From: Acidimicrobiia bacterium
GTDB lineage: Bacteria; Actinomycetota; Acidimicrobiia; Spongiisociales; Spongiisociaceae
Assembly (NCBI GenBank): GCA_022827785.1
Contig: JAJEIM010000042.1
Span: 2,924 to 66,923, forward strand
Reading direction: 5' to 3'
Length of the DNA: 64,000 nt
Both the position numbers and the translations under genes were made by a program. The notes beneath the pieces were generated by a model. The model worked only from the letters and a program-made list of their open reading frames with translations. It ran no database searches and was not told where the DNA came from. This document shows positions 8,915-57,111 of the stretch, piece by piece (position 1 is the first letter of the stretch; the number at the start of each line of letters is the position of its first letter).

Positions 8915-8926
8915 CCGGTTAGCCGG

Positions 8927-16719: not shown

Positions 16720-18479
16720 GCCTTCTCTCGGATCTGACCACGATCGTCGCGGCCGGCTTCGAAGCCGCCGGATTGGACGCCTCGTTCGGCGCCGTCCAGG
16801 TCTCCGATCGTCCCGACCTGGGCCAGTTCCAATGCAACGGCGCGCTGGCCGCTGCTCGGAGCGCCGGCCGTGACCCTCGCTCCATAGCCCGCCAGGTGGC
16901 GGCGCAGATCGAGAGCGACCATAGGCTCGCGTCGGTGTCGATCGCCGGGCCGGGTTTCATCAACCTGACCGTAACCGACCGGACCCTCGCCGGCTGCATG
17001 GACGCCATGGCGGGGGACGAGCGGTTGGGCGTGTCCCCGGTCGAGGAGCCGCTAAATGTGATAGTGGACTATGCGGGGCCGAACGTGGCCAAGGCAATGC
17101 ATGTCGGGCACCTCCGAGCCACGATCATCGGGGACACTCTCAAGCGCCTCTTCCGTTTCGCAGGACACGAGGTGTTGGGAGACGTCCACTTCGGTGACTG
17201 GGGCCTTCAGATGGGCATGCTCATCGTGGCCACCCGCCGGCGCCGTCCGGACCTGGCGCACTTCGACAGATCCTACGGGGGTCCCTACGAGGAACCCCTC
17301 GACGTGACTCTGGCCGATCTCCAGGCGTGGTATCCGGAGATGGCTCGCGAGGTGGCGCGTGACGAGGACGTTGCCGCCGAAGCTCGCCGGGCGACCACCG
17401 ATCTCCAGTCGGGCCGGCCCGGATACGTGGCGCTCTGGGAACACTTCGTCCGGGTGTCCCGTGCCTCCCAGGAGCGGGACTTCTCCGACCTGGGGGTGGA
17501 GTTCGACCTCTGGTACGGGGAGAGCACGGTCCGGGATCTGCTCCGGCCGCTGGTGGATGACGCCCTTGCTCGGGGGGTAGCGGTGCGGTCGGACGGAGCC
17601 GTGGTGATCGAAGTGAGCCGGCCCGGCGACAAGGCCGAGATCACGCCCCTCGTGCTCGAGACCTCCCACGGGGCCTTCCTCTACGGCACCACCGACGTGG
17701 CCACCATCCAGATGCGGGTCGCGGACTTGAGGGCGGACCTGATCCTCTACGTAGTCGACTCTCGCCAGTCCTACCACCTCGAGCAGGTATTCCGGGCCGC
17801 CTGCCGGGCCGGCCTGTCCGGCCGGACAGTCATGGAACACATCGGCTTCGGAACCATGAACGCGCGGGACGGAACCCCCTTCAAGACGCGGGAGGGCGGT
17901 GTGCTCAGGTTGGGAGATCTGATCGAGATGGTCACTGACGCCGCGGCGACCCGTCTCGAGGAGTCGGACCTGGCAGCCGGATATTCGCGGGCGGAACGGG
18001 CCGTGATCGCTCGCCAGGTCGGGATCGCCGCTCTCAAGTTCGGCGACCTGGTCAACAACCGTACCTCCAACTACGTCTTCGACCTGCGCCGATTCACCGC
18101 GCTGGAAGGCAAGACCGGGCCCTACTTGCAGATGGCGGCAGTGCGAATGGATTCGATCCTCACCCGGGCCTCACGCCGGGGATTGGCGCCTGGCGCCGTC
18201 CTGCCGCCCCACCACGAGACGGACACCGGGCTCGTGCTACGCCTTCTCCAACTCCCGGAGGTGATCGACCGCGCCATGGAGTTGCGCGCCCCCAACCATC
18301 TGGCCGAATTCGCCTACGAGGTGGCTGCCGATTTCAGCCGTTTCTACGAGGCATGCCACATCCTGACCGAGCCTGATCCCGGGCAGCAGGCCTCGTGGCT
18401 GGAAATGGTCCGGACGGCCCGCCGGACGCTGGAGCTCCTGCTCGACCTGCTGGGAATCGAGGTTCCTGCCCGCATGTAG
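16716..18479 (+). CDS. argS: Arginine--tRNA ligase
   Basis: HVGH(LR) class-I motif (AKAMHVGHLRATIIGD) and the C-terminal DALR anticodon-binding region. Start at the ATG overlapping the pilD-like stop. The upstream part of ORF 15603..18479 is out-of-frame overlap with pilD. Confidence 0.9.
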   Translation: MSLLSDLTTIVAAGFEAAGLDASFGAVQVSDRPDLGQFQCNGALAAARSAGRDPRSIARQVAAQIESDHRLASVSIAGPGFINLTVTDRTLAGCMDAMAGDERLGVSPVEEPLNVIVDYAGPNVAKAMHVGHLRATIIGDTLKRLFRFAGHEVLGDVHFGDWGLQMGMLIVATRRRRPDLAHFDRSYGGPYEEPLDVTLADLQAWYPEMAREVARDEDVAAEARRATTDLQSGRPGYVALWEHFVRVSRASQERDFSDLGVEFDLWYGESTVRDLLRPLVDDALARGVAVRSDGAVVIEVSRPGDKAEITPLVLETSHGAFLYGTTDVATIQMRVADLRADLILYVVDSRQSYHLEQVFRAACRAGLSGRTVMEHIGFGTMNARDGTPFKTREGGVLRLGDLIEMVTDAAATRLEESDLAAGYSRAERAVIARQVGIAALKFGDLVNNRTSNYVFDLRRFTALEGKTGPYLQMAAVRMDSILTRASRRGLAPGAVLPPHHETDTGLVLRLLQLPEVIDRAMELRAPNHLAEFAYEVAADFSRFYEACHILTEPDPGQQASWLEMVRTARRTLELLLDLLGIEVPARM

Positions 18480-18514
18480 GCAATGGCCTGCCGGGCTCCC
18501 GATACGGCTCCCGC

Positions 18515-19153
18515 TCAGGCGCCCCGGTATTCCAGGATGACGAGGAGCATCCAGGGTGCGTAGAGCAGGGATGGAACGTTGGCGGTGATCCACCGGTAGC
18601 GCGGCGCCCCGTACTGGAGCGCCGGCCAGGCCAGTGCCAGGGCTATCAGACCCGCCGGCCAGGCCCGGCCGCCCACCACGCCCAGATAGGTAGGTACGAG
18701 GTCGAACAGTTCGGAGAAGCGGGCCAGCGCCGAGGCCGACAGGTCTGCCAGCCGGCCGGTGATCCACATGCAGACCAGGATGGCCGGCACCCAGGTGAGG
18801 AGCGTCTCCCACGGTTCAGCCTCCGCCCGCCGACCGGATCGCCCGAGTCCCCCCTCTGCGGCCAGGCCTATCACCGCCGCGCCGAGCATCAACACCGCCA
18901 CGCCGACCGCCAGGACTTCGGACTCCGGCGGCGCCAGATTCAGCGTGAGCAGGCCGAGCCCACCCAGGGCCATCCCGATCCCCATGCCGGCGAGTCCGGT
19001 GCCGATGACCGCCAGCACTACCCCGAGCACCGTCCGCAGCGACTGGATGCCGATGGTCGCCCACCTCCAGACCTCGGACCCGGGCTGGAGAGTCGGGGGC
19101 AGCAGTTCCGGGACGTTCCGGCGCCGCCGCTCATAAGGTGGGTAGTCGGTCAC
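18515..19153 (-). CDS. Hypothetical integral membrane protein
   Basis: 212 aa with several hydrophobic helices (GLAGMGIGMALGGLGLL...). No recognisable family. Confidence 0.5.
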   Translation of the reverse strand: MTDYPPYERRRRNVPELLPPTLQPGSEVWRWATIGIQSLRTVLGVVLAVIGTGLAGMGIGMALGGLGLLTLNLAPPESEVLAVGVAVLMLGAAVIGLAAEGGLGRSGRRAEAEPWETLLTWVPAILVCMWITGRLADLSASALARFSELFDLVPTYLGVVGGRAWPAGLIALALAWPALQYGAPRYRWITANVPSLLYAPWMLLVILEYRGA

Positions 19154-44534: not shown

Positions 44535-45296
44535 GTGAAGATCGTCCGTATGCAGACCCCCGAGGGCATCCGTTACGGTGCTGTCGAGCCGGAAGGGATC
44601 CGCATCCACGACGGGACTCCGTTCGTAGCCTGGCAACCCACCGAGGTGGTGGTCGACTTCCGCCAGGCCCGTCTCCTGTCGCCGGTGTTCCCGACCAAGG
44701 TGATCGGCGTCACCGCCAACTACGCCTCCGGCTCGGACGATGCCGGCAGTGCGCTTCCGGACAGGCCGAGCCTGTTCATCAAGCCCTCCACGTCCGTCAT
44801 CGGCCCGAGCCAGGCGATCGTGCTGCCTGCCCTGTCCGGCGAGGTCCACCACGGAGCGGCCCTGGCCGTGGTGATCGGCAAGGTCGCCCGCAAGGTGGCG
44901 GTCGAGGATGCCGCCTCGGTGGTGCTCGGCTACACCGCCGGTAACGACATCACGGCCCAGGACCTTCTCCGGGAGGAGCAGCAGCCGGGCCGGGCCAAGA
45001 GCTTCGACTCCTTCTGCCCGCTCGGGCCGGCCATCGAGACCGAATACGATCCTTTGGAGGACTTCTCCCTCGAATGCCGTGTGAACGGCGTATTGCGACA
45101 GGGAACATCGATCAACGACATGATCTTCGGGGTGGCGGAGTTGATCTCGTTCGTGACCTACGTGATGACCCTGCTGCCCGGTGACGTGATCCTCACCGGT
45201 ACCCCTCAGGGCGCCGGGCCGGTCAAGAGCGGCGATGTCGTGGAGGTGTCGCTCGAGGGAGTGGGCACCCTGACCAATCCGGTGGTGTCCGAATGA
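44535..45296 (+). CDS. Fumarylacetoacetate hydrolase (FAH) family protein
   Basis: Conserved FAH-fold C-terminal half (GYTAGNDITAQDL...PGDVILTGTPQG). GTG start. Confidence 0.8.
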   Translation: MKIVRMQTPEGIRYGAVEPEGIRIHDGTPFVAWQPTEVVVDFRQARLLSPVFPTKVIGVTANYASGSDDAGSALPDRPSLFIKPSTSVIGPSQAIVLPALSGEVHHGAALAVVIGKVARKVAVEDAASVVLGYTAGNDITAQDLLREEQQPGRAKSFDSFCPLGPAIETEYDPLEDFSLECRVNGVLRQGTSINDMIFGVAELISFVTYVMTLLPGDVILTGTPQGAGPVKSGDVVEVSLEGVGTLTNPVVSE

Positions 45297-46762
45297 GCAG
45301 CAATGCCCGAGTCCGGGTCCGCATCGCCCCGTCGCCTACCGGTTACCTCCATGTCGGCAACGTGCGGGCTGCGCTGTTCAACTGGCTGTACGCCCGCCGC
45401 CACGGGGGTGTCTTCATCATCCGTATCGATGACACCGACCGGGCCCGCTCTGACGACCACTACATCGAGGACATCGTCTCCGGGTTCCGCTGGCTCGGTC
45501 TGGACTGGGACGAGGGGGTGGAGGTGGGAGGGCCGCACGGCACCTATCGCCAGTCGGACCGTTTCGATCGCTACCGGGAGGTGGCGGACCGGTTGATCGA
45601 CATGGGACGCGCCTACCACGACTTCCGTTCGGCAAGCGAGCTGGAGGAGCTGCGGACCCGGGCCCGGGCGGAGAAGAAGGCCCCCGGCCACTACGTGCGG
45701 CGTCCTCGCGGCAGCGACCCGGCCACGGCCCGCCGGCGCATCGGCGCCGGGGAGCAGGCGGTGGTTCGATTCTCGAATCCGGGCCGGGCCGTGGGGTTCA
45801 CGGACGTGGTCCGGGGCGAGGTGCGGTTCGAGGCGGACGCTATCGACGACTTCGTGATCCTGCGCTCCGACGGCTCACCGACCTATCACCTGGCGTCCAC
45901 CGTCGATGACATCGACTACGGGATCACCCACGTGGCCAGGGGGGAGGACCTGCTCTCCTCGACCCCCAAGCACATCCTGATCACCGAGGCGCTCGGCGGC
46001 GAGCGTCCCGTCTATGCCCATCTCCCGCTTCTCTTCGGCCCTGACGGGCGGAAGCTGTCGAAGCGTCACGGCGACACCTCGCTGCGCGCCTACCGGGAGG
46101 GCGGGTACCTGCCGGAGGCGGTGTTCAACTACATGGGCCTGCTGGGCTGGTCGCACGATCCCGACAACGAGGTCTTCGGCCGGGAGGAGGCGATCGCCGC
46201 CTTCGACCTGGCGGATGTCCAGAAGAGCCCGGCCGTGTTCGACCCCGGCAAGTTGGGCTGGATGAACGGCGTGTACATGCGGTCGATGGCCGCCGGGCGC
46301 TTCGCCGATCTGGCGGTCGCATCGGTCGAGGAGGATCTGGGGCGTGACCTTGACGATGACGAACGGAGCCGTCTGGCCGGATTGGCGCCCCTCATCCAGG
46401 AGCGTGCCAAGCTGACCACCGACATCGGCCCGGCGGCGCGCTTCCTGTTCTCGGACATCACCTACGAGGAGAAAGCCTGGCGGAAGGTGATGAAGGCCGA
46501 TGCCCCGCGGGCTTTGGCCTCCGCCCGGACGATGCTCGAGGGCATCGGGATCTGGACCGCAGGGAACATCGAGCGGGCCTTGCGGGACATGCTGGCCGCC
46601 GAGGGCCTCAACCCCCGCAAGGGATGGCAGCCGATCAGGGTGGCGATCACCGGATCCAACATCTCACCACCCCTCTTCGAGAGCCTGGAGGCTCTCCCGA
46701 AGGCGGTGGCTCTCGCCCGGATCACGGCTGCAATCGACCGGCTCTCTGCTGCGAACGGCTGA
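45293..46762 (+). CDS. gltX: Glutamate--tRNA ligase
   Basis: RIAPSPTGYLHVGNVRAALFNW (HIGH region) and KLSKRHG (KMSKS). 489 aa. Confidence 0.92.
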   Translation: MSSNARVRVRIAPSPTGYLHVGNVRAALFNWLYARRHGGVFIIRIDDTDRARSDDHYIEDIVSGFRWLGLDWDEGVEVGGPHGTYRQSDRFDRYREVADRLIDMGRAYHDFRSASELEELRTRARAEKKAPGHYVRRPRGSDPATARRRIGAGEQAVVRFSNPGRAVGFTDVVRGEVRFEADAIDDFVILRSDGSPTYHLASTVDDIDYGITHVARGEDLLSSTPKHILITEALGGERPVYAHLPLLFGPDGRKLSKRHGDTSLRAYREGGYLPEAVFNYMGLLGWSHDPDNEVFGREEAIAAFDLADVQKSPAVFDPGKLGWMNGVYMRSMAAGRFADLAVASVEEDLGRDLDDDERSRLAGLAPLIQERAKLTTDIGPAARFLFSDITYEEKAWRKVMKADAPRALASARTMLEGIGIWTAGNIERALRDMLAAEGLNPRKGWQPIRVAITGSNISPPLFESLEALPKAVALARITAAIDRLSAANG

Positions 46763-46811
46763 CCTACGCGTCCCCATAGGGACGCCGCGGGCGGAAGACC
46801 GTGAGAAACGC

Positions 46812-46837
46812 AGAGGCTCGCCACCAAGGGCGAGCCT
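46812..46837 (+). terminator. GC-rich 10-bp perfect hairpin downstream of gltX (terminator-like, no U-tract)
   Basis: GAGGCTCGCC-accaag-GGCGAGCCTC, read directly. 50 nt after the gltX stop. Confidence 0.4.
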
Positions 46838-46924
46838 CGCACCCAGCCACCGAAGCGAACTGGGGGGATTACTAGGACAAAGTATCTCACAGGTGTGACA
46901 CAAATACAACTCCGTTGTAGTTAG

Positions 46925-47572
46925 GTGTCTTACAATCGCAGCTTCATGGCGACGATTGTCTATATCGACGGGCTCAACTTTTACTACGGTGCTGTAAGGG
47001 GGACTGCCTACAAGTGGCTTGACTACCAGGCGCTTTGCGCACGGCTGCTTCCGCGCGACCAAATCACCAAGATACGCTACTTCACGGCGCGAGTCACCGG
47101 ACTCCCCCATGATGCGAGCGCGGCGACTCGGCAGGACACCTACCTACGCGCCCTCGAAACCCTCGCGCTCGTCGAGATTCACTACGGCCAAATTGTCACC
47201 AGGACCCGGAGGTTGCCGCTGGCCAATCCGACCCCAGGCAGCCCACGAACGGTGGAGGTTCTGGTGACCGAGGAGAAGCGGACCGATGTAAACCTCGCTA
47301 GCTACCTCCTACTCGATGCCTTCACCGGTGCATGCGACACGGCGGTCGTTGTCTCGAATGATTCGGACCTTGCCGAGGCCATCGACATCGCCACGAATGT
47401 CGCCGGAATCAAAGTGGGGGTGGTGAATCCCCACCCTGCCCGATACCGCTCACGACATATGTCGGGAACGTTCTTCAAGCAGTTGCGCTGCGGGATTCTT
47501 CGCCATTGCCAGCTCCCTTCGGAGCTCCACGACGATGCGGGAAGAGCCATCCGGAAACCAACTACCTGGTAG
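46925..47572 (+). CDS. NYN-domain (PIN-like) ribonuclease family protein
   Basis: IVYIDGLNFYYG ... AVVVSNDSDLAEAI matches the NYN/LabA-like fold. Locally lower GC. Alternative ATG start at 46946. Confidence 0.7.
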   Translation: MSYNRSFMATIVYIDGLNFYYGAVRGTAYKWLDYQALCARLLPRDQITKIRYFTARVTGLPHDASAATRQDTYLRALETLALVEIHYGQIVTRTRRLPLANPTPGSPRTVEVLVTEEKRTDVNLASYLLLDAFTGACDTAVVVSNDSDLAEAIDIATNVAGIKVGVVNPHPARYRSRHMSGTFFKQLRCGILRHCQLPSELHDDAGRAIRKPTTW

Positions 47573-47597
47573 TGCCCAGGTGATCGATGTCCGTCGG

Positions 47598-48854
47598 TCA
47601 GCCGAGAGCGAAGTCGAGGGCGTCGATCAGCCGGTCGATTTCGTCTTCGGTGGTGTAGTGGATGAAGGACATCCTCAGCACGCCGGGCTTAGTCGGTATC
47701 CGCATTTCGTCGAGGAGGCGCGGGGCGTAGAAGTCCCCGACGCCGACCATCATCCGGCGCCGGACGAGCGACTCCGCGACATCCGCAACCGGGCGTCGCA
47801 AGGGGACGATCGACACGGTGGGAGCCCGCCGGGTGGCGTCAGTCGGGCCTGCCACCCGCACATCGTCCCGCCCCGAGAGGCAACGCAGCAACCGATCCAG
47901 CAGCCTCGTCTCGTGGGCCCGGAACATGTCATGGACCGCCCGGCCTCGCTCCACCGGGGTCGCAGGAGGTCCTCCATGGTGGGCGTACAGGTCATCCACG
48001 TAGTCGATCACTCCGGCGCACGCCGCGATCTGGGCGTGGTCCTGACCGGCGGGCACCAGCTTGAAGCGAGGCTCGTCGGCCACGAAGTAGTGGCCCTCGT
48101 TCCCGAGCCTCTCCGCCAGTTCGCGGCGGACGAACATCACCCCCTGGTGCGGGCCCCAGGTCTTGTAGGCGGAGAAGAGGTAGACATCCACGCCTGACCC
48201 GCCGATGTCGGGCAGGCCGTGGGGAGCGTAGGACACGCCGTCGACCACCACCTTGGCGCCGACCTCCGCCGCCCGGGCCACCACCTCGGTGACCGGATTG
48301 ATGGCGGCCACCACGTTCGAGGCGTGGGGGAAGGCGACGAGTCTGGTGCGTCCGGTGATCAGCTTGTCGAGATCGGCCAGGTCCAGGGTCCCCTTCTCAG
48401 GATCGACCCGCCACTCCCTGACGACGATCCCCGTCGCCTCCAACCGCCTCCACACGCCGGCGTTGGCCTCGTGGTCCTGGGTTGACGCCACGATCTCGTC
48501 CCCCTCGCGCCACATCGACCTGAACGCCCGGGCCAGGACGTAGGTGTTCTGCGAAGTGGATGGCCCGAAATGGATCTCGTCCACCCCCACGCCCATCCAT
48601 CCCGCCATCCGCCGGTACGAGTGTTCCATCGCCTCGGTCGCCGCCTGGGAGAGCGGGAACGGATGGTCGGGCTGGACCTTGGTGCGGCGGTAGAAGCCGG
48701 TGAGCCGGTCGATCACCTGGCGGCAGACGTAGGAGCCGCCGGCGTTCTCGAAGTGCGCCCAATCCCTGAGGTCGGGGTCGGCGAAGGCCGGGAACCGGCT
48801 GCGGGCATACGCTACGTCGAGGGGTCCCAAGGATGCCTTCGCCTGTGCGTTCAC
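47598..48854 (-). CDS. Class V aminotransferase-fold PLP-dependent enzyme (cysteine desulfurase/epimerase-like)
   Basis: 418 aa. LFSAYKTWGPHQG (PLP-lysine context), class-V fold. Confidence 0.75.
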   Translation of the reverse strand: MNAQAKASLGPLDVAYARSRFPAFADPDLRDWAHFENAGGSYVCRQVIDRLTGFYRRTKVQPDHPFPLSQAATEAMEHSYRRMAGWMGVGVDEIHFGPSTSQNTYVLARAFRSMWREGDEIVASTQDHEANAGVWRRLEATGIVVREWRVDPEKGTLDLADLDKLITGRTRLVAFPHASNVVAAINPVTEVVARAAEVGAKVVVDGVSYAPHGLPDIGGSGVDVYLFSAYKTWGPHQGVMFVRRELAERLGNEGHYFVADEPRFKLVPAGQDHAQIAACAGVIDYVDDLYAHHGGPPATPVERGRAVHDMFRAHETRLLDRLLRCLSGRDDVRVAGPTDATRRAPTVSIVPLRRPVADVAESLVRRRMMVGVGDFYAPRLLDEMRIPTKPGVLRMSFIHYTTEDEIDRLIDALDFALG

Positions 48855-48945
48855 GCGCCCGAGTTTGCCAGATCGGGGCGCTCGGTACCGGTGGTCACGA
48901 CGCGGATGCTCCTCCGGTCAGCCGCAGCTACGAGCCGCTCCCGGC

Positions 48946-49371
48946 TCAGACTCGCTCCAGGACGATGACCGGGATGACCCGCGAGGTGCTGGACTCGTAC
49001 TCCGCGAACTGCGGGTAATCCCGCTTCTGCCTGGTCCAGATCTGATCTCGCTCGTCTCCGGTGGCGACGCGGGCGTGGACCCGGACCGTGTCGGTCCCGA
49101 CCTCCACCTCCGTACCCGGATTGGCCACCACGTTGTGGTACCAGTCGGGGTTGGTGTCCGCCCCGGCCTTGGAGGCGAAGATCGCGTAGCCATCGGCCAA
49201 GTCCTGATACACGAGCGGTGTGACCCGCCGGGTCCCGGTGCGGGCGCCCGTGTTGTGAAGGAGAAGCAGGGGCTTCCCGTCGAACATTCCTCCTACCCGG
49301 CCACCGTTGGCGCGGAACTCCTCGATGATCGCCTTGTTCCAGTCGTTCATGTCCCTATTCCGATCGCTCAT
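48946..49371 (-). CDS. Deazaflavin (F420)-dependent nitroreductase family protein (Ddn-like, DUF385)
   Basis: LLLLHNTGARTGTRRVTPLVY...ASKAGADTNPDWYHN pattern of the Ddn/F420H2-dependent family. Internal ATG start (141 aa). Confidence 0.7.
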   Translation of the reverse strand: MSDRNRDMNDWNKAIIEEFRANGGRVGGMFDGKPLLLLHNTGARTGTRRVTPLVYQDLADGYAIFASKAGADTNPDWYHNVVANPGTEVEVGTDTVRVHARVATGDERDQIWTRQKRDYPQFAEYESSTSRVIPVIVLERV

Positions 49372-49563
49372 CCTGCGCTCCGATCCGTGTCCTTGCTCAA
49401 GGGACTGTCGAAGCCCGCGCCGATGATGCCATGGTCCTGTCACAACCGTAAGGCTGATCCGTCGATCCTTCCTGGCGCCATGGCGGATCGGCTGGTAAAA
49501 GTCCCCACCGTGCGGGAGAAAAGTCTGTTTTCCACATGCAAGGGCCAAAGCAAATCATAAGTT

Positions 49564-50742
49564 ATGATGGCTAATCGGAACACGACGTGCTTCAGAGACG
49601 AGAGTAATGGGGATGGGTCGAGAAAGGCAGCCTTCGACTCCGCGCCGGCGGCTGGGATGATGGCGAGTCGAGGATCCGGGGGAGCGGTGTCAGCTATGCC
49701 AACCCGGCGTAGTGTGGTACTTGAGAACGTCCCGCTGGCCTCGCCGTTTCCTGAGGGTTGGTACTTCGTCACGAGCCGTAAGGCGCTCGAAGCCGGGATG
49801 ATCGAAAAGACCTGGATGGGGGAGAAGATCGTCGCCTGGAGCGACGAGAACGGGAACGTGTGCGTCGCCGGCGCCTTTTGCCCGCACCTTGGCGCCGATC
49901 TGGGACCGACCGCGGGAGGGCGCATCTGCGATGGGAGGCTGGTCTGCCCGTTCCATGGCTACGAGTTCGACGCGACCGGCCAGTGCGTGGCCACCCCCTA
50001 TTCACCCCCGCCTACCAAGGCGAAGTTGCGCGTCTTCGAGACCCGGGAAATCGCCGGCATGATCTTCGCCTGGTGGGGGATCGGGGGGCGGGCACCGCAA
50101 TGGAGCCTGGCTGACGACGATCTGGACCAGGACGGATGGACCGGTCTCAAGATCAGGACCGTCCGCTTTCCCGGCCATCCCCAGGAGACCACGGAGAACT
50201 CGGTGGACGTGGGCCACCTGCGCTACGTCCATGGCTATGACAGCGTGAGTCGTGTCGGGCGGGTCTCGGTGGACGGGGCGCGTCTTGAGAGCGACTTCGA
50301 CTTCATGCGCACCCGGACCATCGGCAAGGTGTTGAACCTCACCTTCGACGTGGCGGCGCGTACCCGTATCTTCGGGTTGGGCTATTCGTTCGTGCAGATC
50401 CGCGAGCGCTCGATCGGAATGGACATGCGCCTGTGGGTGCTGGCCACGCCGGTCGACGGTTTGCTCATCGACCTGTCACTGGTTTCGCAGGTGCGGGAGA
50501 TACGCAAGCCGCGGCGGTGGATAGCGGGCCTGGGGTTTCTGCCGGTGAAGTTACGCGCCCCCATCATGAACCGGTTCATTTCCGCTCAGCAATACGGGGA
50601 CGTCCAGCAGGACGTGATCATCTGGAGCCGCAAACAGTACCGATCCCGCCCGCTTCTCTGCCGTTCCGACGGCGAGATCATGCCGTTCCGGCGCTACTGC
50701 GCCCAGTTCTACCCCGACCGGGGCGACCCGGAGAACCGCTAG
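49564..50742 (+). CDS. Rieske [2Fe-2S] non-heme-iron oxygenase, KshA/Neverland-like
   Basis: Rieske motif CPHLGADLG-x17-CPFHGYEF. Mononuclear-iron motif E-x3-D-x2-H-x4-H (ENSVDVGHLRYVH). About 390 aa like KshA. True start may be a later M. Confidence 0.75.
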   Translation: MMANRNTTCFRDESNGDGSRKAAFDSAPAAGMMASRGSGGAVSAMPTRRSVVLENVPLASPFPEGWYFVTSRKALEAGMIEKTWMGEKIVAWSDENGNVCVAGAFCPHLGADLGPTAGGRICDGRLVCPFHGYEFDATGQCVATPYSPPPTKAKLRVFETREIAGMIFAWWGIGGRAPQWSLADDDLDQDGWTGLKIRTVRFPGHPQETTENSVDVGHLRYVHGYDSVSRVGRVSVDGARLESDFDFMRTRTIGKVLNLTFDVAARTRIFGLGYSFVQIRERSIGMDMRLWVLATPVDGLLIDLSLVSQVREIRKPRRWIAGLGFLPVKLRAPIMNRFISAQQYGDVQQDVIIWSRKQYRSRPLLCRSDGEIMPFRRYCAQFYPDRGDPENR

Positions 50743-50860
50743 CGCGCGAGCTGACCGGATCGGGGGTATGCAGATGGCCCGCTGGGGAGGGACGTGTTCT
50801 CTCGGTTTTCGCGTTCTTGATGCCCGGGTATGGGCGACGAACTGCTGAATCAGCGCCCTC

Positions 50861-51949
50861 TTACAGCGGCTTGCGGGCCAGGAAACAATACAGCGGTGTG
50901 AAGATCCCGGCCCTGCCACCCGCGACATATGCCCTGGCGGTCCGATCCATCAGCCTCACGACGTCCGCGGTGCCTTCCGGAAATATCTTCACCAACTCGG
51001 CCAGCCTGAGTCCCCCGATCATCGCCTTCCGGCCCAATGGGACCCTGTACAGGGTGCCGCCCGGCGTGCCGCGCCGGGTCTCCATGGGCCGATACCAGGG
51101 AACGGGGTGGCTCGGACTGTTCTGCGCTACGGCCCGATCCTTCCCTTCGAGGACCTCGAATCCCGCTTCTTCGAGCGCCCGGTTCACCTCGCCCGTGGTG
51201 GCGATTCCGTCGAGCGCGATGCCGTGCATCAGCTCATGCTCGATGGCTCGGTGCCGGTCGTCGTCGGGATCGAACCTGTCCGTCAAGCACATCTCCTGGC
51301 CCCAGAAGAGAGCTCCGGGCTTGAGAACCCGGTGGATCTCCGCGAACGCGCTCACCTTGTCCGGCGCATGGCACGTCGATTCGATGGCGTAGCCGCGGTC
51401 GAATGTGTCGTCCGCGACGGCGCTCATGTCCATGAAGCTGCAGGCAAGGTAGTCGACCACGTGGTCGAGACCCGCCTCGGCATTCAACGACTTCGCCTTG
51501 TCCAATTGGAGATCGTTGTTGTTGACGCCTACGACCCGGACACCACCCTCCCGAACGACACGGCGCATCGGGCCGCCGATCCCGCAACCGACGTCGATCA
51601 CGGTCATGCCCTCGCGCAATTCCAGCTTGTCGATCATCAGTCGCTGGTGCCTGATCTGCGATTCTTCCAGGCTCTCCTCGGGCGACAGTGGCGCGAAGTG
51701 CAGGGACTCGCTCCAACCGAACACCATGAACTCCCCGCAAAGGTCGTAGTAGTCCCTCACGGTTTTGGCGTGGTCGTAGGCTGTTGCGCCGGTTCCCGTG
51801 CGAATTGCCCGGTCGGTCCATCCGTTGAAGTGGCGCACGCGACCGGCGACGTCCGTCCCACGGTACGTCGCCTTGAGCCCGGTGGCTAGCTCGCGCAGAC
51901 CCATGAACCCTGGGACATCAACAGCGACGGGGTGTCTTCTCGTGTCCAT
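50861..51949 (-). CDS. Sterol 24-C-methyltransferase (ERG6/SMT)-like SAM-dependent methyltransferase
   Basis: SMT region I YYDLCGEFMVFGWSESLHF. SAM motif VIDVGCGIGGPMR. GVNNNDLQLDKAK and YAIESTCHAPD match ERG6-family signatures closely (ERG6: GLNNNDYQI..AK, YAIEATCHAP). Internal ATG start at 51949. Confidence 0.85.
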   Translation of the reverse strand: MDTRRHPVAVDVPGFMGLRELATGLKATYRGTDVAGRVRHFNGWTDRAIRTGTGATAYDHAKTVRDYYDLCGEFMVFGWSESLHFAPLSPEESLEESQIRHQRLMIDKLELREGMTVIDVGCGIGGPMRRVVREGGVRVVGVNNNDLQLDKAKSLNAEAGLDHVVDYLACSFMDMSAVADDTFDRGYAIESTCHAPDKVSAFAEIHRVLKPGALFWGQEMCLTDRFDPDDDRHRAIEHELMHGIALDGIATTGEVNRALEEAGFEVLEGKDRAVAQNSPSHPVPWYRPMETRRGTPGGTLYRVPLGRKAMIGGLRLAELVKIFPEGTADVVRLMDRTARAYVAGGRAGIFTPLYCFLARKPL

Positions 51950-52109
51950 TCTCCGCGCACCAGAAAATACTACAGGGAGAGAGAGGCGATCATGGCTACG
52001 GCGGCAGGATGCATCCGAGAGGGATCCTGCCCACCCGTCGAATCGGTCTAGATCCGTCCGGTTCGGCGCCACGGCCAGTACCGGGCCACACTCTCGAGTG
52101 GATCGCCTC

Positions 52110-54137
52110 CTACACCGGCAGTTCGTGCCGCTGCGCGGCGATGACGAACTTCAGCTTGTTGTTCACCGACGAAGATGGGAACGGGCTGATCTTCAGCTTG
52201 TACCTGGCGGGTGAGATCTCGAGGGTGAAATGGTGTACGAGCATCAGCAAATGGATCGCCATTTGAAGTGACGTCCACCGGGAGCCCAGGCATGTGTGGG
52301 TACCCAGACCGTACGGCGCAAATGAGGATCCGACGTGTTCCCTGCGCGGCGCTAGATAGCGACCGATATCAAACGAGAAGGGATCGGGGAAGACTTCCTC
52401 CATGTAGTGTGTGGCCGTTTGGGCAATCACGACCCGGGACCCCTGCGGGAGTTCGTATCCGTCAACTGTGCACGTGTTCATCACGTTTCGATAGGATGCC
52501 GGCACGATCGGATAGACACGCATGCACTCCATGATGAACCGGCGTGTGACGTCTATCCCAGGTCCGGTGATCTCATCACGATCGGGATCCCCGTTGGCGA
52601 ACAAGGCATCGGCCTCGCCCTGGATCTTCTCGTAGAACTCGGGCTGTGACACCATCGCGTAGGTGATCAAGCCAAGCTGGTCACCCACATACATGCTTGC
52701 GATCAACGGCGCCGAGAGCACGAACGGCAGATTCGACTCCGGGAGGAACTGCCGGTCGCTCGTATGCATGCTCAGAAGGTCATCGGCAAGATCGCGAGGG
52801 CACCCTGCCCGCTGGGCGGGCGTGTGGACGCTCTGGACTCGTTCCACAACCTCTCCGACCAGCTTCGCCCGGCGCTTCATGGCAGGAGTACGCAGCATGA
52901 ACTTGGGCATGTTCCTGACGACATGGGTCTGAAGGGCTCGTTCCTTGAACTTGTGCAGGTCATCGACGAGATCCTGGGAATCGATACTGACGGTGAGCGG
53001 CGACATTGTTGCGTTGACCAGGCGCCTGCACATCGCCTTCGCGGGAAGCACATCTCCGACAGACCAGGCTGCCATGTGGTTCCGGGCATTGGAGTAGACC
53101 TCATCCAGCTGAGCTTCCAGCCTCGCGCGTGAATAGGCCGGCTGCATGGACTTGCGATACCGGAAATGATCACCACCGTCGAGGGTAGGCAATAACCCCG
53201 ATCCTCCGTATACCTTCTCGAAGTCCTCCAGATAATCCTTGGCCCTCAGATACATGCGCCCGTGCCGATGCACCCAGTGGTTCATTTCTGGTCCGGCGAG
53301 AAAGATCATCGGGTTGGCGAAGGGTGGACGAACCTGGAACACGGGACCATATTCTTGCGCGAGCTCTGCAAATAGTGCAGGAATATTACCTTGACGAAGG
53401 TGTCGACTGCCCAGCAGATGGCGAAGCGGCGCAACCGGAATCGGCTTAGCGAAAGCGGAGGGTCTGAACAAGGACCCAGCCAGGTTGTCGCTAACTGCTG
53501 CGGCGATGGACCTGCCGATCAGGTCCATCTTGCCGATGAATTCAACACGCCTTTCCGACTCTTCATCAAGGTCAAATATGAAGCGCAAGACATCACATGT
53601 ATTGATGAGACAGATGATAATGATATCTCTAGGGTCCGGAATCTCGTTGGCGAAGATCGCTCGACCGAGGCGCGTCTTGACGAAGTCTACAGCAGTACCT
53701 TCCCCAGATCTGGCATACGTGTCCTTCTGACATCCGCCCCGGGCCAACGACCAGAAGTCACCGTCGTGGTGCTGCAAGATCTTCAGGTCGACCAATCGAT
53801 CAAGGGTTAAGTCGATAATCGATTCTGCACGGGGAGCGAGCCGTTCGATCCAGTACTGGGCGTTCCGCTGAACCGGCTCTGCGGCGATCTTCTCGAGAAT
53901 AGGATCCAGGGCAGGATCGCCTGTTTCTGTTCGATCCAGAAGGATCAAGGAATCCATATCCGTGTCGATACGAGATAGCAGCGACAGCTCTCCCAACACG
54001 GCGCCGATAACGGCACAGTTCAGATCCCACCCGGGAACCTGCCGGAAGTAGCCACTCTCCTCGTTGAGGAGCGTGAGGACGAACTCGTCGAGCAAACTGA
54101 GCGTCTGACTGGTCGCACTGCTTGCGGTAAGAGTCAT
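52110..54137 (-). CDS. Cytochrome P450 with N-terminal GPP34/GOLPH3-like domain (fusion, 675 aa)
   Basis: C-terminal P450 has EXXR (ECMRVYP) and heme-thiolate loop FAPYGLGTHTCLGSRW. N-terminal about 200 aa match the GPP34 family (LLDEFVLTLLNEESGYF..VPGWDLNCAVIGAVLGELSLLSRI ... DPRDIIIICLINTCDVLRFIF). Lower GC than the flanks. Confidence 0.85.
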   Translation of the reverse strand: MTLTASSATSQTLSLLDEFVLTLLNEESGYFRQVPGWDLNCAVIGAVLGELSLLSRIDTDMDSLILLDRTETGDPALDPILEKIAAEPVQRNAQYWIERLAPRAESIIDLTLDRLVDLKILQHHDGDFWSLARGGCQKDTYARSGEGTAVDFVKTRLGRAIFANEIPDPRDIIIICLINTCDVLRFIFDLDEESERRVEFIGKMDLIGRSIAAAVSDNLAGSLFRPSAFAKPIPVAPLRHLLGSRHLRQGNIPALFAELAQEYGPVFQVRPPFANPMIFLAGPEMNHWVHRHGRMYLRAKDYLEDFEKVYGGSGLLPTLDGGDHFRYRKSMQPAYSRARLEAQLDEVYSNARNHMAAWSVGDVLPAKAMCRRLVNATMSPLTVSIDSQDLVDDLHKFKERALQTHVVRNMPKFMLRTPAMKRRAKLVGEVVERVQSVHTPAQRAGCPRDLADDLLSMHTSDRQFLPESNLPFVLSAPLIASMYVGDQLGLITYAMVSQPEFYEKIQGEADALFANGDPDRDEITGPGIDVTRRFIMECMRVYPIVPASYRNVMNTCTVDGYELPQGSRVVIAQTATHYMEEVFPDPFSFDIGRYLAPRREHVGSSFAPYGLGTHTCLGSRWTSLQMAIHLLMLVHHFTLEISPARYKLKISPFPSSSVNNKLKFVIAAQRHELPV

Positions 54138-54301
54138 CCGTCCGCCCCTCCGTTACCCAACCATGGAAACCTTAGCATGCAGGGGCTGTTTCGAGATCTG
54201 CGGGATAGGGCGAGGAGGGTGACGAATCCTGCCACCGCGTCACCTATGGCGAGCTTCGGGTAAAGGCACCCTGGCGGTCCGCGAGCAACTAGCCTGGGGC
54301 C

Positions 54302-55072
54302 ATGGCTCAACTACAACTCCGTCCGCTAGGTGTCGGCGAGATCGTCGACGCCACATTCACCGTCTACCGGCGCCGCTTCGGCCCGATGTTCGCCATCGCG
54401 CTGATGCTCGTGTTCATCCCGTTCCTCATCAGCCTGGTCGGTGGCTGCAGCCTCGACGCGAGCGGCACGACCACATGTACGTCTCCCATCGGCTGGCTCG
54501 CGTACATCGCAGGCTCGATCGGCACCCTCGTGGCGGGCACGGCTGCCGCCCTGGTGGCGGCCGAAGCCTATGCAGGTGTCCCGTCCGACTGGCGGCGAGC
54601 GACGAGGATCGGGCTTCGTAGAACCCTGGCGATCATCGGGGCGACGATCGTGGCCGGGGTGCTGATCGCCATCGGATTCGTGCTCGTGATCGTCCCGGGT
54701 ATCTTCCTGGCCGTGTCCCTCGCGGTGGTCTGGCAGGCTCTGATCATCGAAGGCGCTGGTCCGATGGAGAGCATCAAGCGGTCGTGGCGTCTGGTGGCCG
54801 GCGAGCGCTGGAGGGTGTTCGGGGCCGGCTTGCTCGTCATAATCATCGCGATCATCGTCTTCGGGGTTGCCTCGGCGGTGATCTGGCTCATCCTCTCGGC
54901 CGGCCTGGGAGTGAGCGGAGATACGGGCGGTTACCTCGTCCAGCAGGTAGCCACCCTGCTGTCAGTCCCGCTGAGCGCCGCGGTAGGTACGGTCATCTAT
55001 CTCGATCTGCGGGTGCGCAAGGAGTCGCTCGGCACGGCCGAACTCGCCGCCGCTCTGTCCGAACGGGGCTGA
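54302..55072 (+). CDS. Hypothetical polytopic membrane protein
   Basis: 256 aa, multiple TM helices. N-terminal GEIVDATFTVYRRRF resembles GPDPase-membrane/DUF-type families. Weak. Confidence 0.45.
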   Translation: MAQLQLRPLGVGEIVDATFTVYRRRFGPMFAIALMLVFIPFLISLVGGCSLDASGTTTCTSPIGWLAYIAGSIGTLVAGTAAALVAAEAYAGVPSDWRRATRIGLRRTLAIIGATIVAGVLIAIGFVLVIVPGIFLAVSLAVVWQALIIEGAGPMESIKRSWRLVAGERWRVFGAGLLVIIIAIIVFGVASAVIWLILSAGLGVSGDTGGYLVQQVATLLSVPLSAAVGTVIYLDLRVRKESLGTAELAAALSERG

Positions 55073-55161
55073 ATCAACTAGCCTCCGGTCCCCGAGCAAC
55101 ACTGACCGTTGATCGAGGTTCTCCGGATGCCCATCAAGGGCGTAGGATCATCGGAGCCACA

Positions 55162-55238
55162 GGCCCCGTCGTCCAGCCGGCCTAGGACGCTGGCCTTTCA
55201 AGCCAGAAACGCGGGTTCGAATCCCGTCGGGGCCACCA
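55162..55238 (+). tRNA. tRNA-Glu (anticodon TTC), CCA encoded
   Basis: Manual fold. Acceptor GGCCCCG/CGGGGCC, D-stem GTCC/GGAC, anticodon stem CTGGC/GCCAG, loop CTTTCAA, T-loop TTCGAAT. Confidence 0.85.
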
Positions 55239-55276: not shown

Positions 55277-56476
55277 ATGACCGGGGACAGACACTTCTAC
55301 GTAGACTCGTTCGATACGGTCCGGCTGAGTTCGTATCGGCTCGGTCGGTCGCCCTTTGCCGGCCGATACGTGACGGACCAGACGATCTTCGGCCTGTACT
55401 GCGGTCGCTTGTATCCCCTCAAGACCACCCCCGACGAGGACCCAGTTCCCCGGTACTGGAAGCTGCGTCGCGGGGTGCTGCTCTACGACGTTCCGGAGAA
55501 GCCCCTCGAGATCAGCGGACCGGACGCCGCCCGAGTGCTCGAGAGGGTTCTCATCTGCAGGGTCGCAACGCTCGCAGTGGGTCGGGCTCGCTATGGCATC
55601 GCCTGCAAAGAGGACGGCACCGTTCTGATGGACGGTGTGCTCATGCGCCTTGCGCAGGATCGCTTCTGGTACGTGAAGGCGAACGGGGAGTTCACGAGCT
55701 GGCTCGAGGCGCACGCCGTCGGGCTTGACGCAGAAGTCTCCGATCCGGATTCGAGAGTGCTGCAGATCCAAGGGCCGAAGTCGCTCGATGTTCTGGACGC
55801 GGCCATCGGTGGTGGGCTATCGACCGACTTCAGATATTTCCACGCCGGATTCTTCGACATCGGAGGCCAGACATTGTGGGTCTCCCGGACCGGGTGGACG
55901 GGGGAGATGGGCATCGAGATCTACTGCAACAGCGGTCCGGAGCCCACGGATCATGACGCCCTCTGGGATCATCTGTTCGCCAGCGGTGGACCCTTCGGAC
56001 TCGAGTTCAGCTCGGGGTCGTCGATGGGAATACGGCGCATCGAAGCCGGCATCCTGGACAATGGCACCGATATCGAAGCGGACCTGACGCCGTTCGGCGC
56101 CGGCCTCGGGAACTTTGTCGCCCTCGACAAGGGGGACTTCATCGGCCGCTCCGCGTTGGTGAAGGCCGATCGCAGCCAGCTCCTGTTCGGCCTGGTATGT
56201 GCCACCGCCGCTCCGGACGCCGGGCTGCAGGTCCACTTCGAGAACCGCCCGGTCGGGCACATCACGATAGGCACCTGGTCGCCCACGCTGGACAGAGGAG
56301 TCGGCTACGTGCGCTTCGATCGACCGCTGCCGGGTGGTGACTGGCTCGGCAAGACGGTCATGTTGCTCGACCATCGGGGAGGCCTCCACCCGGCGACTGT
56401 CGACACCCTGCCGTTCGTGGACAAGGAGAAGCGGTTACCGCGCGCCGAGTGGCGTGGCGGAGGGTCCGGGACATAG
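55277..56476 (+). CDS. Aminomethyltransferase (GcvT) family folate-binding protein
   Basis: GcvT-like N- and C-terminal barrel domains (YDVPEKPLEISGPDA..., GTDIEADLTPFGAGL). 399 aa. Confidence 0.75.
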   Translation: MTGDRHFYVDSFDTVRLSSYRLGRSPFAGRYVTDQTIFGLYCGRLYPLKTTPDEDPVPRYWKLRRGVLLYDVPEKPLEISGPDAARVLERVLICRVATLAVGRARYGIACKEDGTVLMDGVLMRLAQDRFWYVKANGEFTSWLEAHAVGLDAEVSDPDSRVLQIQGPKSLDVLDAAIGGGLSTDFRYFHAGFFDIGGQTLWVSRTGWTGEMGIEIYCNSGPEPTDHDALWDHLFASGGPFGLEFSSGSSMGIRRIEAGILDNGTDIEADLTPFGAGLGNFVALDKGDFIGRSALVKADRSQLLFGLVCATAAPDAGLQVHFENRPVGHITIGTWSPTLDRGVGYVRFDRPLPGGDWLGKTVMLLDHRGGLHPATVDTLPFVDKEKRLPRAEWRGGGSGT

Positions 56477-56545: not shown

Positions 56546-56617
56546 TCGGGAGTGGTGTAATCGGCAGCACGACAGGTTCTGGCCCTGTTAGTAGGGGTTC
56601 GAGTCCTCTCTCCCGAG
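56546..56617 (+). tRNA. tRNA-Gln (anticodon CTG)
   Basis: Manual fold. U1-A72 acceptor TCGGGAG/CTCCCGA, D-stem GTGT/GCAC, anticodon stem ACAGG/CCTGT, loop TTCTGGC, T-arm AGGGG-TTCGAGT-CCTCT, discriminator G. Confidence 0.8.
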
Positions 56618-56644
56618 CGGTTGGTATCATTCGCCACACGCAGT

Positions 56645-56717
56645 GGCCCCGTCGTCTAGGGGCCTAGGACACCGCCCTCTCAAGGCGGAGACGCCAGTTC
56701 AAATCTGGTCGGGGCTG
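56645..56717 (+). tRNA. tRNA-Glu (anticodon CTC)
   Basis: Manual fold. Acceptor GGCCCCG/CGGGGCT (G1-U72), anticodon stem CCGCC/GGCGG, loop CTCTCAA, T-loop TTCAAAT. 27 nt after tRNA-Gln. Confidence 0.8.
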
Positions 56718-57111
56718 CGATAGAACGACCCGGTCGGACCCATCACCGTGTGAAGGGTTCCGGTCGGGTCATTCCTTTCGCTGTCTCGGACGGCTCTTCG
56801 CAAACGAGCGGGTCGATATGTGTCCGACCGAGAGCCTCGCTCCCGAAAATCCGGTGCTTCGCATCGGGCCCCGCCCCCACCACCACCCATCCTGTTGGAG
56901 CGTGGTCGGCCATGCCCGGCTGGATGCCGGGGATCGGCTGTCGCTCCATGAAGCCTTCCATGTTCCCTCGGTCCGGCCGGTCCGATCGTCATCGGCCGGT
57001 TAGGTGCTTGGCGATGGGCACCTTATAGCGGGGGTGTGACGATTCCGGCCACGATCTGCGAGAACGCGAAAGAACGGTAAGGAAGCGCCTCCGCGATCGG
57101 TGAGGGTCGTG

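Follow-up and report, generated by a model that had tools for sequence, protein, structure and literature searches.

A composite plasticity zone downstream of gltX in a sponge-symbiont acidimicrobiial chromosome, and recruitment of a sterol-methyltransferase-family gene beside a GPP34-cytochrome P450 fusion

We analyzed a 64,000-nucleotide stretch of the genome of an Acidimicrobiia bacterium (family Spongiisociaceae; GenBank assembly GCA_022827785.1, contig JAJEIM010000042.1), hereafter the window, in which a block of low GC content (46770-55165) separates the glutamyl-tRNA synthetase gene gltX from a gene for tRNA-Glu(ttc). Our results support a model in which this block is a composite plasticity zone, shaped by gene flux on a small scale, in a sponge-symbiont chromosome, not a discrete mobile island. 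Within the zone, a gene of the sterol-methyltransferase (SMT) family was recently inserted, with no other gene, into an old pair formed by a KshA-like Rieske oxygenase gene and a gene encoding a fusion of a GPP34 domain to a cytochrome P450 (GPP34-P450). Both the composite nature of the zone and the structural and evolutionary account of the insertion are well supported. We further consider it probable, on balance, that the zone and the SMT recruitment are to be read together with a single lipid-tailoring module, comprising SMT, GPP34-P450 and the Rieske enzyme, that acts on sterols or triterpenoids.

An SMT-bearing insert between the Rieske and GPP34-P450 genes

Relatives of the window were collected by a scan with the gltX protein, with one genome taken per species, which led to sponge-associated Acidimicrobiia; 13 gltX loci were compared by tblastn and blastn. 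Six of them (L001-L005 and L009) belong to metagenome-assembled genomes (MAGs) of the same genus, named Candidatus Spongiisocius, and have gltX proteins with 88-93% amino acid identity. In these six loci the stop codons of the Rieske and P450 genes lie ~30 bp apart, whereas in the window they are separated by 1,367 bp. The insertion breakpoints found by blastn are at 50762/50763 and 52099/52100, with GGATCG at both sides. The corresponding empty sites hold a single GGATCG in L001, L005 and L009 and a one-base variant of it in L002, and are more diverged in L003 and L004. The insertion and the two genes that flank it comprise the following features.

49696..50742, + strand: KshA-like Rieske non-haem-iron oxygenase, 348 aa (Pfam Rieske and KshA_C; the listed open reading frame (ORF) runs from 49564)
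50757..50762: GGATCG, left copy of the 6-bp direct repeat around the SMT insertion
50763..52099, - strand: inserted 1,337-bp segment with SMT (blastn breakpoints against sister loci)
50861..51904, - strand: SMT-family gene, 347 aa (Pfam CMAS, Methyltransf_11 and Sterol_MT_C; alternative start at 51949)
52048..52101, - strand: 3'-end remnant of an S26 signal-peptidase gene, sodX-like (alignment to L014)
52100..52105: GGATCG, right copy of the 6-bp direct repeat, 4 bp past the P450 stop codon
52110..54137, - strand: GPP34-cytochrome P450 fusion, 675 aa (Pfam GPP34 at aa 15-215, 92 bits; p450 at aa 245-661, 121 bits)

The insert consists of ~100 bp of the spacer downstream of SMT, the SMT gene, SMT's own upstream region and the signal-peptidase remnant. 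Over its whole length, non-coding flanks included, it aligns at 82.5% identity over 1,333 bp to positions 7814-9120 of L014, which is a different locus; L019 and L053, separate assemblies that are 96-97% identical to L014, align to it likewise. In L014 the SMT gene is flanked by a DUF3048 gene and, at its other end, by the genes for Ni-superoxide dismutase (sodN) and its S26 maturation peptidase (sodX). Positions 7486-7869 of L014 encode a complete Peptidase_S26 protein that ends in HSRVVARYWPWRRAGTI before its stop codon, and the homology to the insert begins within the 3' end of this gene. The remnant in the window covers the last ~17 sodX codons through the stop, has lost 1 bp, and reads HSRV / ARYWPWRRTGRI and stop across the frameshift. 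The direction of transfer follows from this sodX remnant: the segment was copied from a sodX-SMT locus into the Rieske/P450 spacer. The L014 contig (1.65 Mb) also carries a GPP34-P450 of the same cluster, 86% identical to that of the window, and L014 therefore represents a sister species. Between the SMT genes of the window and L014, synonymous divergence (dS) is 0.36, within the backbone range of 0.29-0.47, and the ratio of nonsynonymous to synonymous divergence (dN/dS) is 0.27, values that fit a relocation within the lineage and continued function.

Three assemblies carry the insertion, namely the window and the near-identical assemblies L016 (GCA_022821195.1; 99.8%) and L102 (a 296-kb scaffold; 99.4%), and we therefore rejected assembly chimerism as its source. 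The insert contains no transposase and has no convincing terminal inverted repeats, the 6-bp junction repeat being the only repeat present. Two to three bases at each junction also occur in the donor locus, which suggests an illegitimate, microhomology-type recombination as the route of insertion. In addition, the 9-mer CCGATCCGG is found at 50755-50763 of the window, at 7794-7802 of L014 (12 bp from the breakpoint, where it is coding sequence of the S26 peptidase) and at ~11150-11170 of L053. This 9-mer occurs nine times in the window against an expectation of 4.45, a count reached by 1 of 100 shuffles and not clearly meaningful; it may have supplied the microhomology, or its presence at both loci may be a coincidence.

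In this lineage only, then, a 1,337-bp piece was copied from a sodX-SMT locus into a ~30-bp spacer between convergent Rieske and GPP34-P450 genes. SMT has thereby come to lie directly downstream of GPP34-P450 on the same strand, recreating a pairing that recurs in many unrelated sponge-symbiont genomes; selection for co-inheritance or co-expression would explain why SMT was captured at this site.

Age and composition of the block downstream of gltX

A preliminary description of this DNA, made from the sequence alone, had presented the block as a lower-GC island inserted at a tRNA-associated hotspot. Its inventory has held up well: Pfam confirms every gene that it named, its three tRNAs are exactly those found by ARAGORN, and the GC-rich hairpin that it placed after gltX is there, accompanied by a second. 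The features of the block and its borders that were not given above are these.

45293..46762, + strand: gltX, glutamyl-tRNA synthetase (Pfam tRNA-synt_1c and Anticodon_2), the left backbone anchor of the block
46768-46785, + strand: GC-rich hairpin 1 after gltX, GCGTCCCCATAGGGACGC (read off the sequence)
46813-46838, + strand: GC-rich hairpin 2 after gltX, GAGGCTCGCC..GGCGAGCCTC (read off the sequence)
46925..47572, + strand: NYN-domain protein, 215 aa (Pfam NYN, 37.7 bits)
47598..48854, - strand: class-V aminotransferase (AT5), cysteine-desulfurase-like (Pfam Aminotran_5; NCBIfam TIGR01976-like)
48946..49548, - strand: Ddn-like F420H2-dependent oxidoreductase, listed ORF of 200 aa (Pfam F420H2_quin_red, 125 bits; NCBIfam TIGR00026)
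54302..55072, + strand: multi-pass membrane protein, 256 aa (weak matches below cut-off to DUF975 and GPDPase_memb)
55162..55238, + strand: tRNA-Glu(ttc) (ARAGORN)
55277..56476, + strand: GcvT-family aminomethyltransferase (Pfam GCV_T and GCV_T_C)
56546-56618, + strand: tRNA-Gln(ctg) (ARAGORN)
56645-56718, + strand: tRNA-Glu(ctc) (ARAGORN)

A consensus scan for promoters and terminators gave counts at or under the shuffle expectation and missed the two hairpins after gltX because they have no T-tract. The F420H2_quin_red domain occupies aa 75-198 of the listed Ddn-like ORF, and the true start of this gene is probably internal to it. Those parts of the window outside the block that have family matches encode housekeeping families (secDF, relA, hisS, aspS, alaS, mltG, aroE, ligA and an amidase). 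The GcvT-family gene between the tRNAs is matched about equally well, or slightly better, by models for dimethylsulfoniopropionate and trimethylamine N-oxide demethylases than by the GcvT subfamily model, and far worse by the gcvT equivalog model than by the demethylase models, all of these matches being below cut-off; it may be a methyl-group demethylase for sponge osmolytes rather than the T protein of glycine cleavage.

The block has a GC content of 62.7% against 67.6% for the remainder of the window, as the preliminary description had perceived, and essentially no other 8.4-kb segment of the 64 kb lies lower (minimum 0.627, mean 0.669, sd 0.016; the block is at about -2.6 sd). The NYN and P450 regions are AT-richer than the surroundings, also as described. 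The main trough is GPP34-P450 (GC 57.5%, GC at third codon positions (GC3) 0.69), followed by NYN (59.6% and 0.72), and the lowest 1-kb bin of the window is 53001-54000 with 55.6%. GC3 is 0.78 in the Ddn-like gene and 0.81-0.83 in the Rieske, SMT, membrane-protein and GcvT genes, and AT5 has a GC of 68.3% and a GC3 of 0.88, the same GC3 as gltX. The dip is therefore patchy: the block as a whole is lower in GC, but the deviation is confined to NYN and above all GPP34-P450, and AT5 matches the backbone.

The distribution of the genes points to stepwise assembly. Among the farther relatives, L006, L007, L008 and L012 have 76-80% and L010 60% amino acid identity in gltX, and all five of these family-level relatives lack the module. 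In L010 only 52 bp separate gltX from tRNA-Glu(ttc), in L008 AT5 alone lies between them, and in L007 and L012 gltX is followed by AT5, the Ddn-like gene and then unrelated genes. By contrast, L001-L005 and L009 share the order AT5-Ddn-Rieske-GPP34-P450-membrane-tRNA-Glu(ttc), with 79-91% amino acid identity to the window, and L003 continues past the tRNA with GcvT, tRNA-Gln and tRNA-Glu(ctc) as the window does. From the proximity of gltX and tRNA-Glu(ttc) in L010 and L008, the Ddn-like, Rieske, GPP34-P450 and membrane-protein genes were added between them at some point, and the additions are older than the diversification of the genus, which spans at least six sister species at a dS of 0.29-0.65 from the window. 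AT5 is assigned to the backbone, with gltX, because of its composition and because it adjoins gltX in L007, L008 and L012; the Ddn-like gene probably belongs to the backbone as well. The earlier expectation that gltX usually lies beside tRNA-Gln and tRNA-Glu is thus borne out as adjacency or near-adjacency to tRNA-Glu(ttc) in two distant outgroups, but not in the six same-genus relatives.

Could the whole 8.4 kb nonetheless be one horizontally acquired island, integrated at a tRNA-Gln/Glu hotspot downstream of gltX? Such an island would account for the lowest-GC 8.4-kb stretch of the window, for the closeness of gltX and tRNA-Glu(ttc) in L010 and L008, and for a plastic neighborhood, L002, L004 and L009 being unlike one another 3' of tRNA-Glu(ttc). 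It is true, moreover, that genes were added between gltX and the tRNA and that GPP34-P450 has a foreign-looking composition. The acquisition was, however, neither single nor recent. The block is present in six of six genus-level relatives, at a dS of 0.3-0.65, and no presence/absence polymorphism of the unit as a whole is seen; it is heterogeneous in composition, AT5 is backbone in composition and distribution, and parts were gained or lost on separate occasions (the SMT insertion, the NYN deletions, a membrane-protein paralogue in L102). In agreement with the preliminary description, no integrase or recombinase turned up in Pfam and NCBIfam scans, which took the principal ORF at every position over 46.9-56.5 kb. 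The att-like repeats for which it had proposed a search at the boundaries are missing too: the longest exact matches to the three tRNAs are scattered 11-12-mers at chance level, almost all outside the block. Integrative elements insert at the 3' end of tRNA genes, and the block lies 5' of tRNA-Glu(ttc). We regard the single island as largely refuted and very improbable.

A second alternative is that the low GC is a trait of the GPP34-P450 and NYN genes themselves, due to amino acid composition or to weak codon bias with poor expression, and says nothing about foreign origin. GC1 (0.58-0.62) and GC2 (0.41-0.42) of GPP34-P450 are indeed lowered too. The trough also persists in every sister genome (GC 57-60%, GC3 0.69-0.76, against 0.87-0.90 for gltX) and has lasted across species at a dS of ~0.6 with no drift towards host composition; the same gene content thus recurs in related genomes, which speaks against an island, yet with the GC dip kept and not with a backbone-like composition. 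Homologous fusions of other lineages (L040, L048, L059 and L060), on the other hand, have a GC3 of 0.84-0.89, like their hosts. Low GC is thus not inherent in the family, and in the genus of the window it is a foreign signature that has been kept. Also contrary to a gene-specific trait are the absence of the module from L006, L007, L008, L010 and L012 and the 68-75% identity between homologues of Acidimicrobiia and those annotated as Chloroflexi or Dadabacteria, which indicates horizontal spread. We consider this alternative improbable, although a little less so than the single island.

What varies among close relatives is the SMT segment, NYN, one membrane-protein paralogue and the DNA 3' of tRNA-Glu(ttc). 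NYN is intact in the window lineage only: L002 retains just the C-terminal 42 aa (11594-11719), L005 has a different internal deletion (~2458-2460), and the gene is wholly missing from L001, L003, L004 and L009, so that it is an old gene being lost, apparently by repeated independent events, and not a new arrival. L102 has an extra 1,073-bp segment between Rieske and Ddn (8374-9446, 57.8% GC) in place of window positions 49436-49530, and this segment encodes a 283-aa membrane protein 43% identical to that encoded at 54302-55072. The latter gene is kept in the sister genomes; in L002 it is present as a tandem duplicate (17187-17954 and 17998-18762) whose products share 87% and 67% identity with the window protein. 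The DNA 3' of tRNA-Glu(ttc) is unlike among L002 (18934-21467), L004 (17802-20449) and L009 (17702-21416), with a 2.6-kb insert of 60% GC in L004 and unrelated sequence in the other two, and the ORFs of this DNA have no Pfam match and no att repeat is associated with it. GcvT is kept in L003, L004 and L005, and follows tRNA-Glu(ttc) directly in the window, L003 and L005.

The block resembles tRNA-linked islands and integrative elements in its lower, though patchy, GC, its accessory genes, its proximity to tRNAs and its varying content among relatives. It differs from them in having neither integrase nor att repeats, in lying 5' of the tRNA, and in being genus-wide and built piecemeal through indels of 0.6-1.3 kb. 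Genome scans should therefore allow for low-GC DNA beside tRNAs being an old accessory zone assembled stepwise and not an island.

Linkage of SMT, GPP34-P450 and Rieske genes

A metagenome scan with an SMT alignment recovered 43 SMT loci of the sponge type (61-83% identity) and a further 37 that are distant. Linkage was counted in 35 loci of the sponge type that have 6 kb or more of flanking sequence (4 from protein look-ups and 31 from the scan). A P450 of the GPP34-P450 type occurs within 10 kb of SMT in 20 of the 35 loci, is fused to GPP34 in 19 and lies less than 300 bp from SMT in 10. A KshA-like Rieske gene is present in 12/35 and a resistance-nodulation-division (RND) transporter with a sterol-sensing domain (SSD; Pfam MMPL, Patched and Sterol-sensing) in 5/35. 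At least eight gene orders are found, including co-directional GPP34-P450 to SMT pairs resembling that of the window. Given the one to six GPP34 copies per genome reported by Ferreira et al. 2025 (Microbiome, PMC11706023), proximity of this kind would be expected by chance in a few percent of loci at most. Canonical sterol-synthesis genes are not among the recurrent neighbors of sponge-type SMTs.

The association also appears when the survey starts from the fusion. In three GPP34-P450 loci picked irrespective of SMT (L099, L100 and L101), a Rieske gene lies 1.4-4 kb away in all three, together with short-chain dehydrogenases/reductases (SDRs), a Baeyer-Villiger-type monooxygenase (BVMO), an FAD amine-oxidase-like oxidoreductase and further P450s; L100 also has an SSD-RND transporter. 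In L099, from Candidatus Poriferisocius, tandem GPP34-P450 genes (5795-7828 and 8001-10148) adjoin genes for a KshA-like Rieske protein, a BVMO, SDRs, an FAD oxidoreductase and one more P450. Transporters that accompany the module in L017, L021, L023, L048, L059, L060 and L100 match Pfam MMPL, Patched and Sterol-sensing, and in NCBIfam are of the HAE3 type, with HpnN scoring highest (124 bits against a cut-off of ~752), followed by BstA (48 against 1400) and Patched, all below cut-off.

Two further observations concern SMTs in other settings. In L018 (8001-13543), from a genome of 72% GC, a sponge-type SMT stands alone beside a complete glycine-cleavage operon (gcvT, gcvH, gcvP), one of several settings that lack a GPP34-P450. 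Distant SMTs (41-45% identity) in L062, L064, L066-L070, L073, L081, L094, L096 and L097, mostly JGI 'Ga' metagenome contigs, have immediately 3' a Rieske gene whose product is 26-28% identical to that of the window; this is probably the sdmA-type gene of canonical sterol clusters.

The SMT of the window has the Sterol_MT_C domain (PF08498; 55.9 bits against a cut-off of 21.7) and recognizable SMT motifs (VGCGIGGP, IESTCHAPDK and a C-terminal GGRxGIFTP..FLARKP, the last common to the window SMT and assayed bacterial SMTs). The class I motif for binding S-adenosylmethionine (SAM; LDVGCGVGGP-type) is present as IDVGCGIGGPMRR, with a G-C-G-x-G-G-P core that is invariant in the clade, and the region III motif (IEATCHAP) is present as YAIESTCHAPDK. 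Region I (YE[YF]GWGxSFHF) reads EFMVFGWSESLHF in the window clade against the canonical DFYEFGWGQSFHF of the assayed enzymes L079 and L093: the core FGW..S.HF is retained, with Met in place of Tyr, Val in place of Glu and Leu in place of Phe. The best match of SMT in the Protein Data Bank (PDB) is MitM, at 71 bits, and there is no close solved structure.

More than 100 proteins that share the architecture of GPP34-P450 are homologous to it at 68-100% identity, and several of these carry the names Acidimicrobiia or Candidatus Poriferisocius. Named relatives come from Candidatus Spongiisocius, Candidatus Poriferisocius, Acidimicrobiia MAGs and sponge metagenomes (LXNI/LXNJ), with no systematic search having been made outside sponges. 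Homologues at 68-77% identity are very numerous for each of SMT, GPP34-P450 and Rieske, and the annotation of several of them as Chloroflexi or Dadabacteria agrees with a horizontal spread within sponge microbiomes. The EXXR motif (E537/R540) and the haem-ligating C616 in YGLGTHTCLG are invariant across 31 sequences, and the gene is under purifying selection (dN/dS ~0.13). The best PDB sequence matches of the P450 domain are terpenoid and sterol P450s of eukaryote type (CYP725A4, CYP120 and CYP51), the GPP34 domain has no PDB sequence match at E<=1, and AlphaFold2 (AF2) modelled the full protein with low confidence (pLDDT 56). In the P450 domain, the I-helix (residues ~478-490) reads ASMYVGDQLG (consensus ...DQLS) and lacks the usual Thr of the acid-alcohol pair, which may mean an unusual oxygen-activation chemistry.

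The fusion corresponds to the GPP34_L family of PMC11706023, which is described there as exclusive to sponge symbionts, present in many phyla and unassigned in function, and is proposed to bind phosphatidylinositol 4-phosphate (PI4P), block phagosome maturation and evade phagocytosis. On that proposal GPP34-P450 would be a host-directed effector, with SMT and Rieske as unrelated passengers. The PI4P binding of the eukaryotic GPP34 domain, the reported restriction of the fusion to sponge symbionts (PMC11706023) and the SMT loci with no fusion nearby are in its favor. Yet the protein has no N-terminal signal peptide or other obvious export signal, its GPP34 domain starting at residue 15, and it conserves an intact haem-thiolate P450 domain under the selection noted above. 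It is also tightly and repeatedly linked, in many gene orders, to lipid-modifying enzymes and a lipid RND transporter, and rare fusions of GPP34 to Rieske oxygenases have been reported (PMC11706023). We consider the effector alternative unlikely as stated, but the two roles are compatible, since a sterol-modifying enzyme could act on host membranes.

The Rieske protein has all its metal ligands (C62-x-H64, C84-xx-H87, H174, H179 and D302) invariant in 31 sequences and a KshA_C domain (PF19298; 78.8 bits). Its AF2 model (pLDDT 77) finds KshA5, KshA1 and Mycobacterium tuberculosis KshA as the best PDB folds in Foldseek (4QDD, 4QDC, 4QDF and 4QCK; TM 0.72-0.74, 21-23% identity). Identification with SdmA was rejected: NF052579 scores 28.2 bits against a cut-off of 600, with the Rieske domain alone aligning.

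A KshA-like fold and domain beside a P450 raise the alternative of 9,10-seco steroid catabolism, in which KshA and a CYP125-like side-chain hydroxylase would let the symbiont feed on host sterols. Sponge-only KshA clades ('cluster IV') and sponge steroid degraders have been described (Holert et al. 2018, mBio, PMC5790920), and in L099 and L101 the pair lies amid SDRs, a BVMO, a family-III CoA-transferase and an acyl-CoA dehydrogenase. The most frequent partner, however, is SMT, an anabolic, tailoring enzyme; the window block has no KshB, KstD, HsaA-D or mce4-type genes; the identity to KshA is low; and the PDB matches of the P450 are not to CYP125 or CYP142. We think catabolism about as doubtful as a secreted effector.

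A candidate lipid-tailoring module and its relation to known systems

The reading that we prefer is instead that of a sterol- or triterpenoid-tailoring module, which we infer from the association of the genes. The substrate would be sterols or related cyclic triterpenoids, either derived from the host or made by the bacterium. SMT would alkylate the side chain with SAM, P450 and Rieske would oxygenate or desaturate the ring or the side chain, and the N-terminal GPP34 domain would serve as a membrane- or lipid-docking module for the P450 in place of the usual membrane anchor; elsewhere, the module would add an HAE3 (HpnN/Patched-like) RND transporter and an FAD oxidoreductase. The functional assignment draws on the activity assayed elsewhere in the SMT family, the resemblance of the Rieske fold to KshA, a transporter of sterol/hopanoid type and the published GPP34-Rieske fusions, and the copying of SMT to a site beside GPP34-P450 suggests that GPP34-P450 acts on sterols. 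A bolder version, to which we give only tentative credence, is that the variant SMT, GPP34-P450, KshA-like Rieske, FAD oxidoreductase and HAE3 transporter constitute a new, horizontally spreading and sponge-symbiont-specific pathway of sterol/triterpenoid remodelling, with GPP34 docking oxygenases and not acting as a secreted PI4P effector.

Several observations weigh against this reading. The variant region I replaces the Tyr and the Glu of the canonical motif, and both residues matter for catalysis in Erg6. The two assayed SMTs that could be placed (L079 and L093) share only 40-46% identity with that of the window and fall in a distant clade, and we know of no assayed enzyme from the clade of the window SMT. 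No assayed contig of Brown et al. 2023 (Nat Commun, PMC10070321) is among the 43 sponge-type loci recovered. Family scans of the block and of 40.9-61.9 kb detect no oxidosqualene cyclase, squalene monooxygenase, CYP51 or C-14 reductase, and the block has no KshB, reductase or ferredoxin gene, leaving the oxygenases with no redox partner there. In the survey, 15 of the 35 SMT loci have no GPP34-P450 nearby, and the metagenome loci are not all phylogenetically independent. Lastly, the higher score of HpnN relative to BstA means that the substrate could be another triterpenoid.

Comparison with known systems helps to define what the module shares with them and where it departs. Bacterial SMTs of sponge symbionts methylate sterols in vitro, and the study that reported this (PMC10070321) concerned an SMT family with Sterol_MT_C from uncultured sponge symbionts of the same metagenomes (LXNI/LXNJ, A. 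aerophoba). The clusters described there, however, contain canonical ERG1, ERG7, ERG11, ERG24 and ERG6 genes with sdmA and sdmB, none of which is in the window block, and the window SMT differs from the assayed L079 and L093 in clade and in region I. The GPP34_L family has the same two-domain architecture and length (~675 aa) in sponge-associated Acidimicrobiia and other phyla, but its linkage here to SMT, a KshA-like Rieske gene and an HAE3 RND transporter suggests an enzyme that works on lipids; the text of PMC11706023 never mentions sterols or methyltransferases. The Rieske enzyme shares with the KshA/KshB system the Rieske [2Fe-2S] and KshA_C domains, all metal ligands and its best structural matches, and differs in its low identity, in having no KshB nearby and in being partnered with SMT and a P450 fusion and not with ring-cleavage genes. 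The transporters of related loci match the HAE3 RND lipid-transporter families (HpnN, BstA, Patched/NPC1), but below the curated cut-offs, and the window itself has no such gene.

Each component has thus been published before, and our literature search found no paper that ties GPP34 to sterols in sponge symbionts; what appears to be new, judging from gene content, is an unusually composed SMT cluster for which a recruitment event is documented. The three families have each been flagged as special to sponges: SMTs in the debate over the 24-isopropylcholestane biomarker, GPP34-P450 as a symbiosis marker, and the KshA homologues as sponge-only clades. In the window and 35 or more related loci these families are physically linked, and a traceable 1.34-kb copy joined them in one lineage. 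If the link is functional, there is a second kind of SMT cluster that lacks sterol-synthesis genes and therefore possibly acts on host sterols.

In summary, if the proposed module is real, symbionts could alkylate and oxygenate sterols of the host or of their own making, which would bear on the question of who makes the unusual side-chain-alkylated sponge sterols that are used as animal biomarkers, and the window would record the recruitment of SMT into such a cluster in one lineage. GPP34-P450 would then gain a biochemical role, in sterol tailoring, that can be put to the test. Our work has implications for a widespread, symbiosis-specific protein family whose function this locus makes testable by biochemistry.

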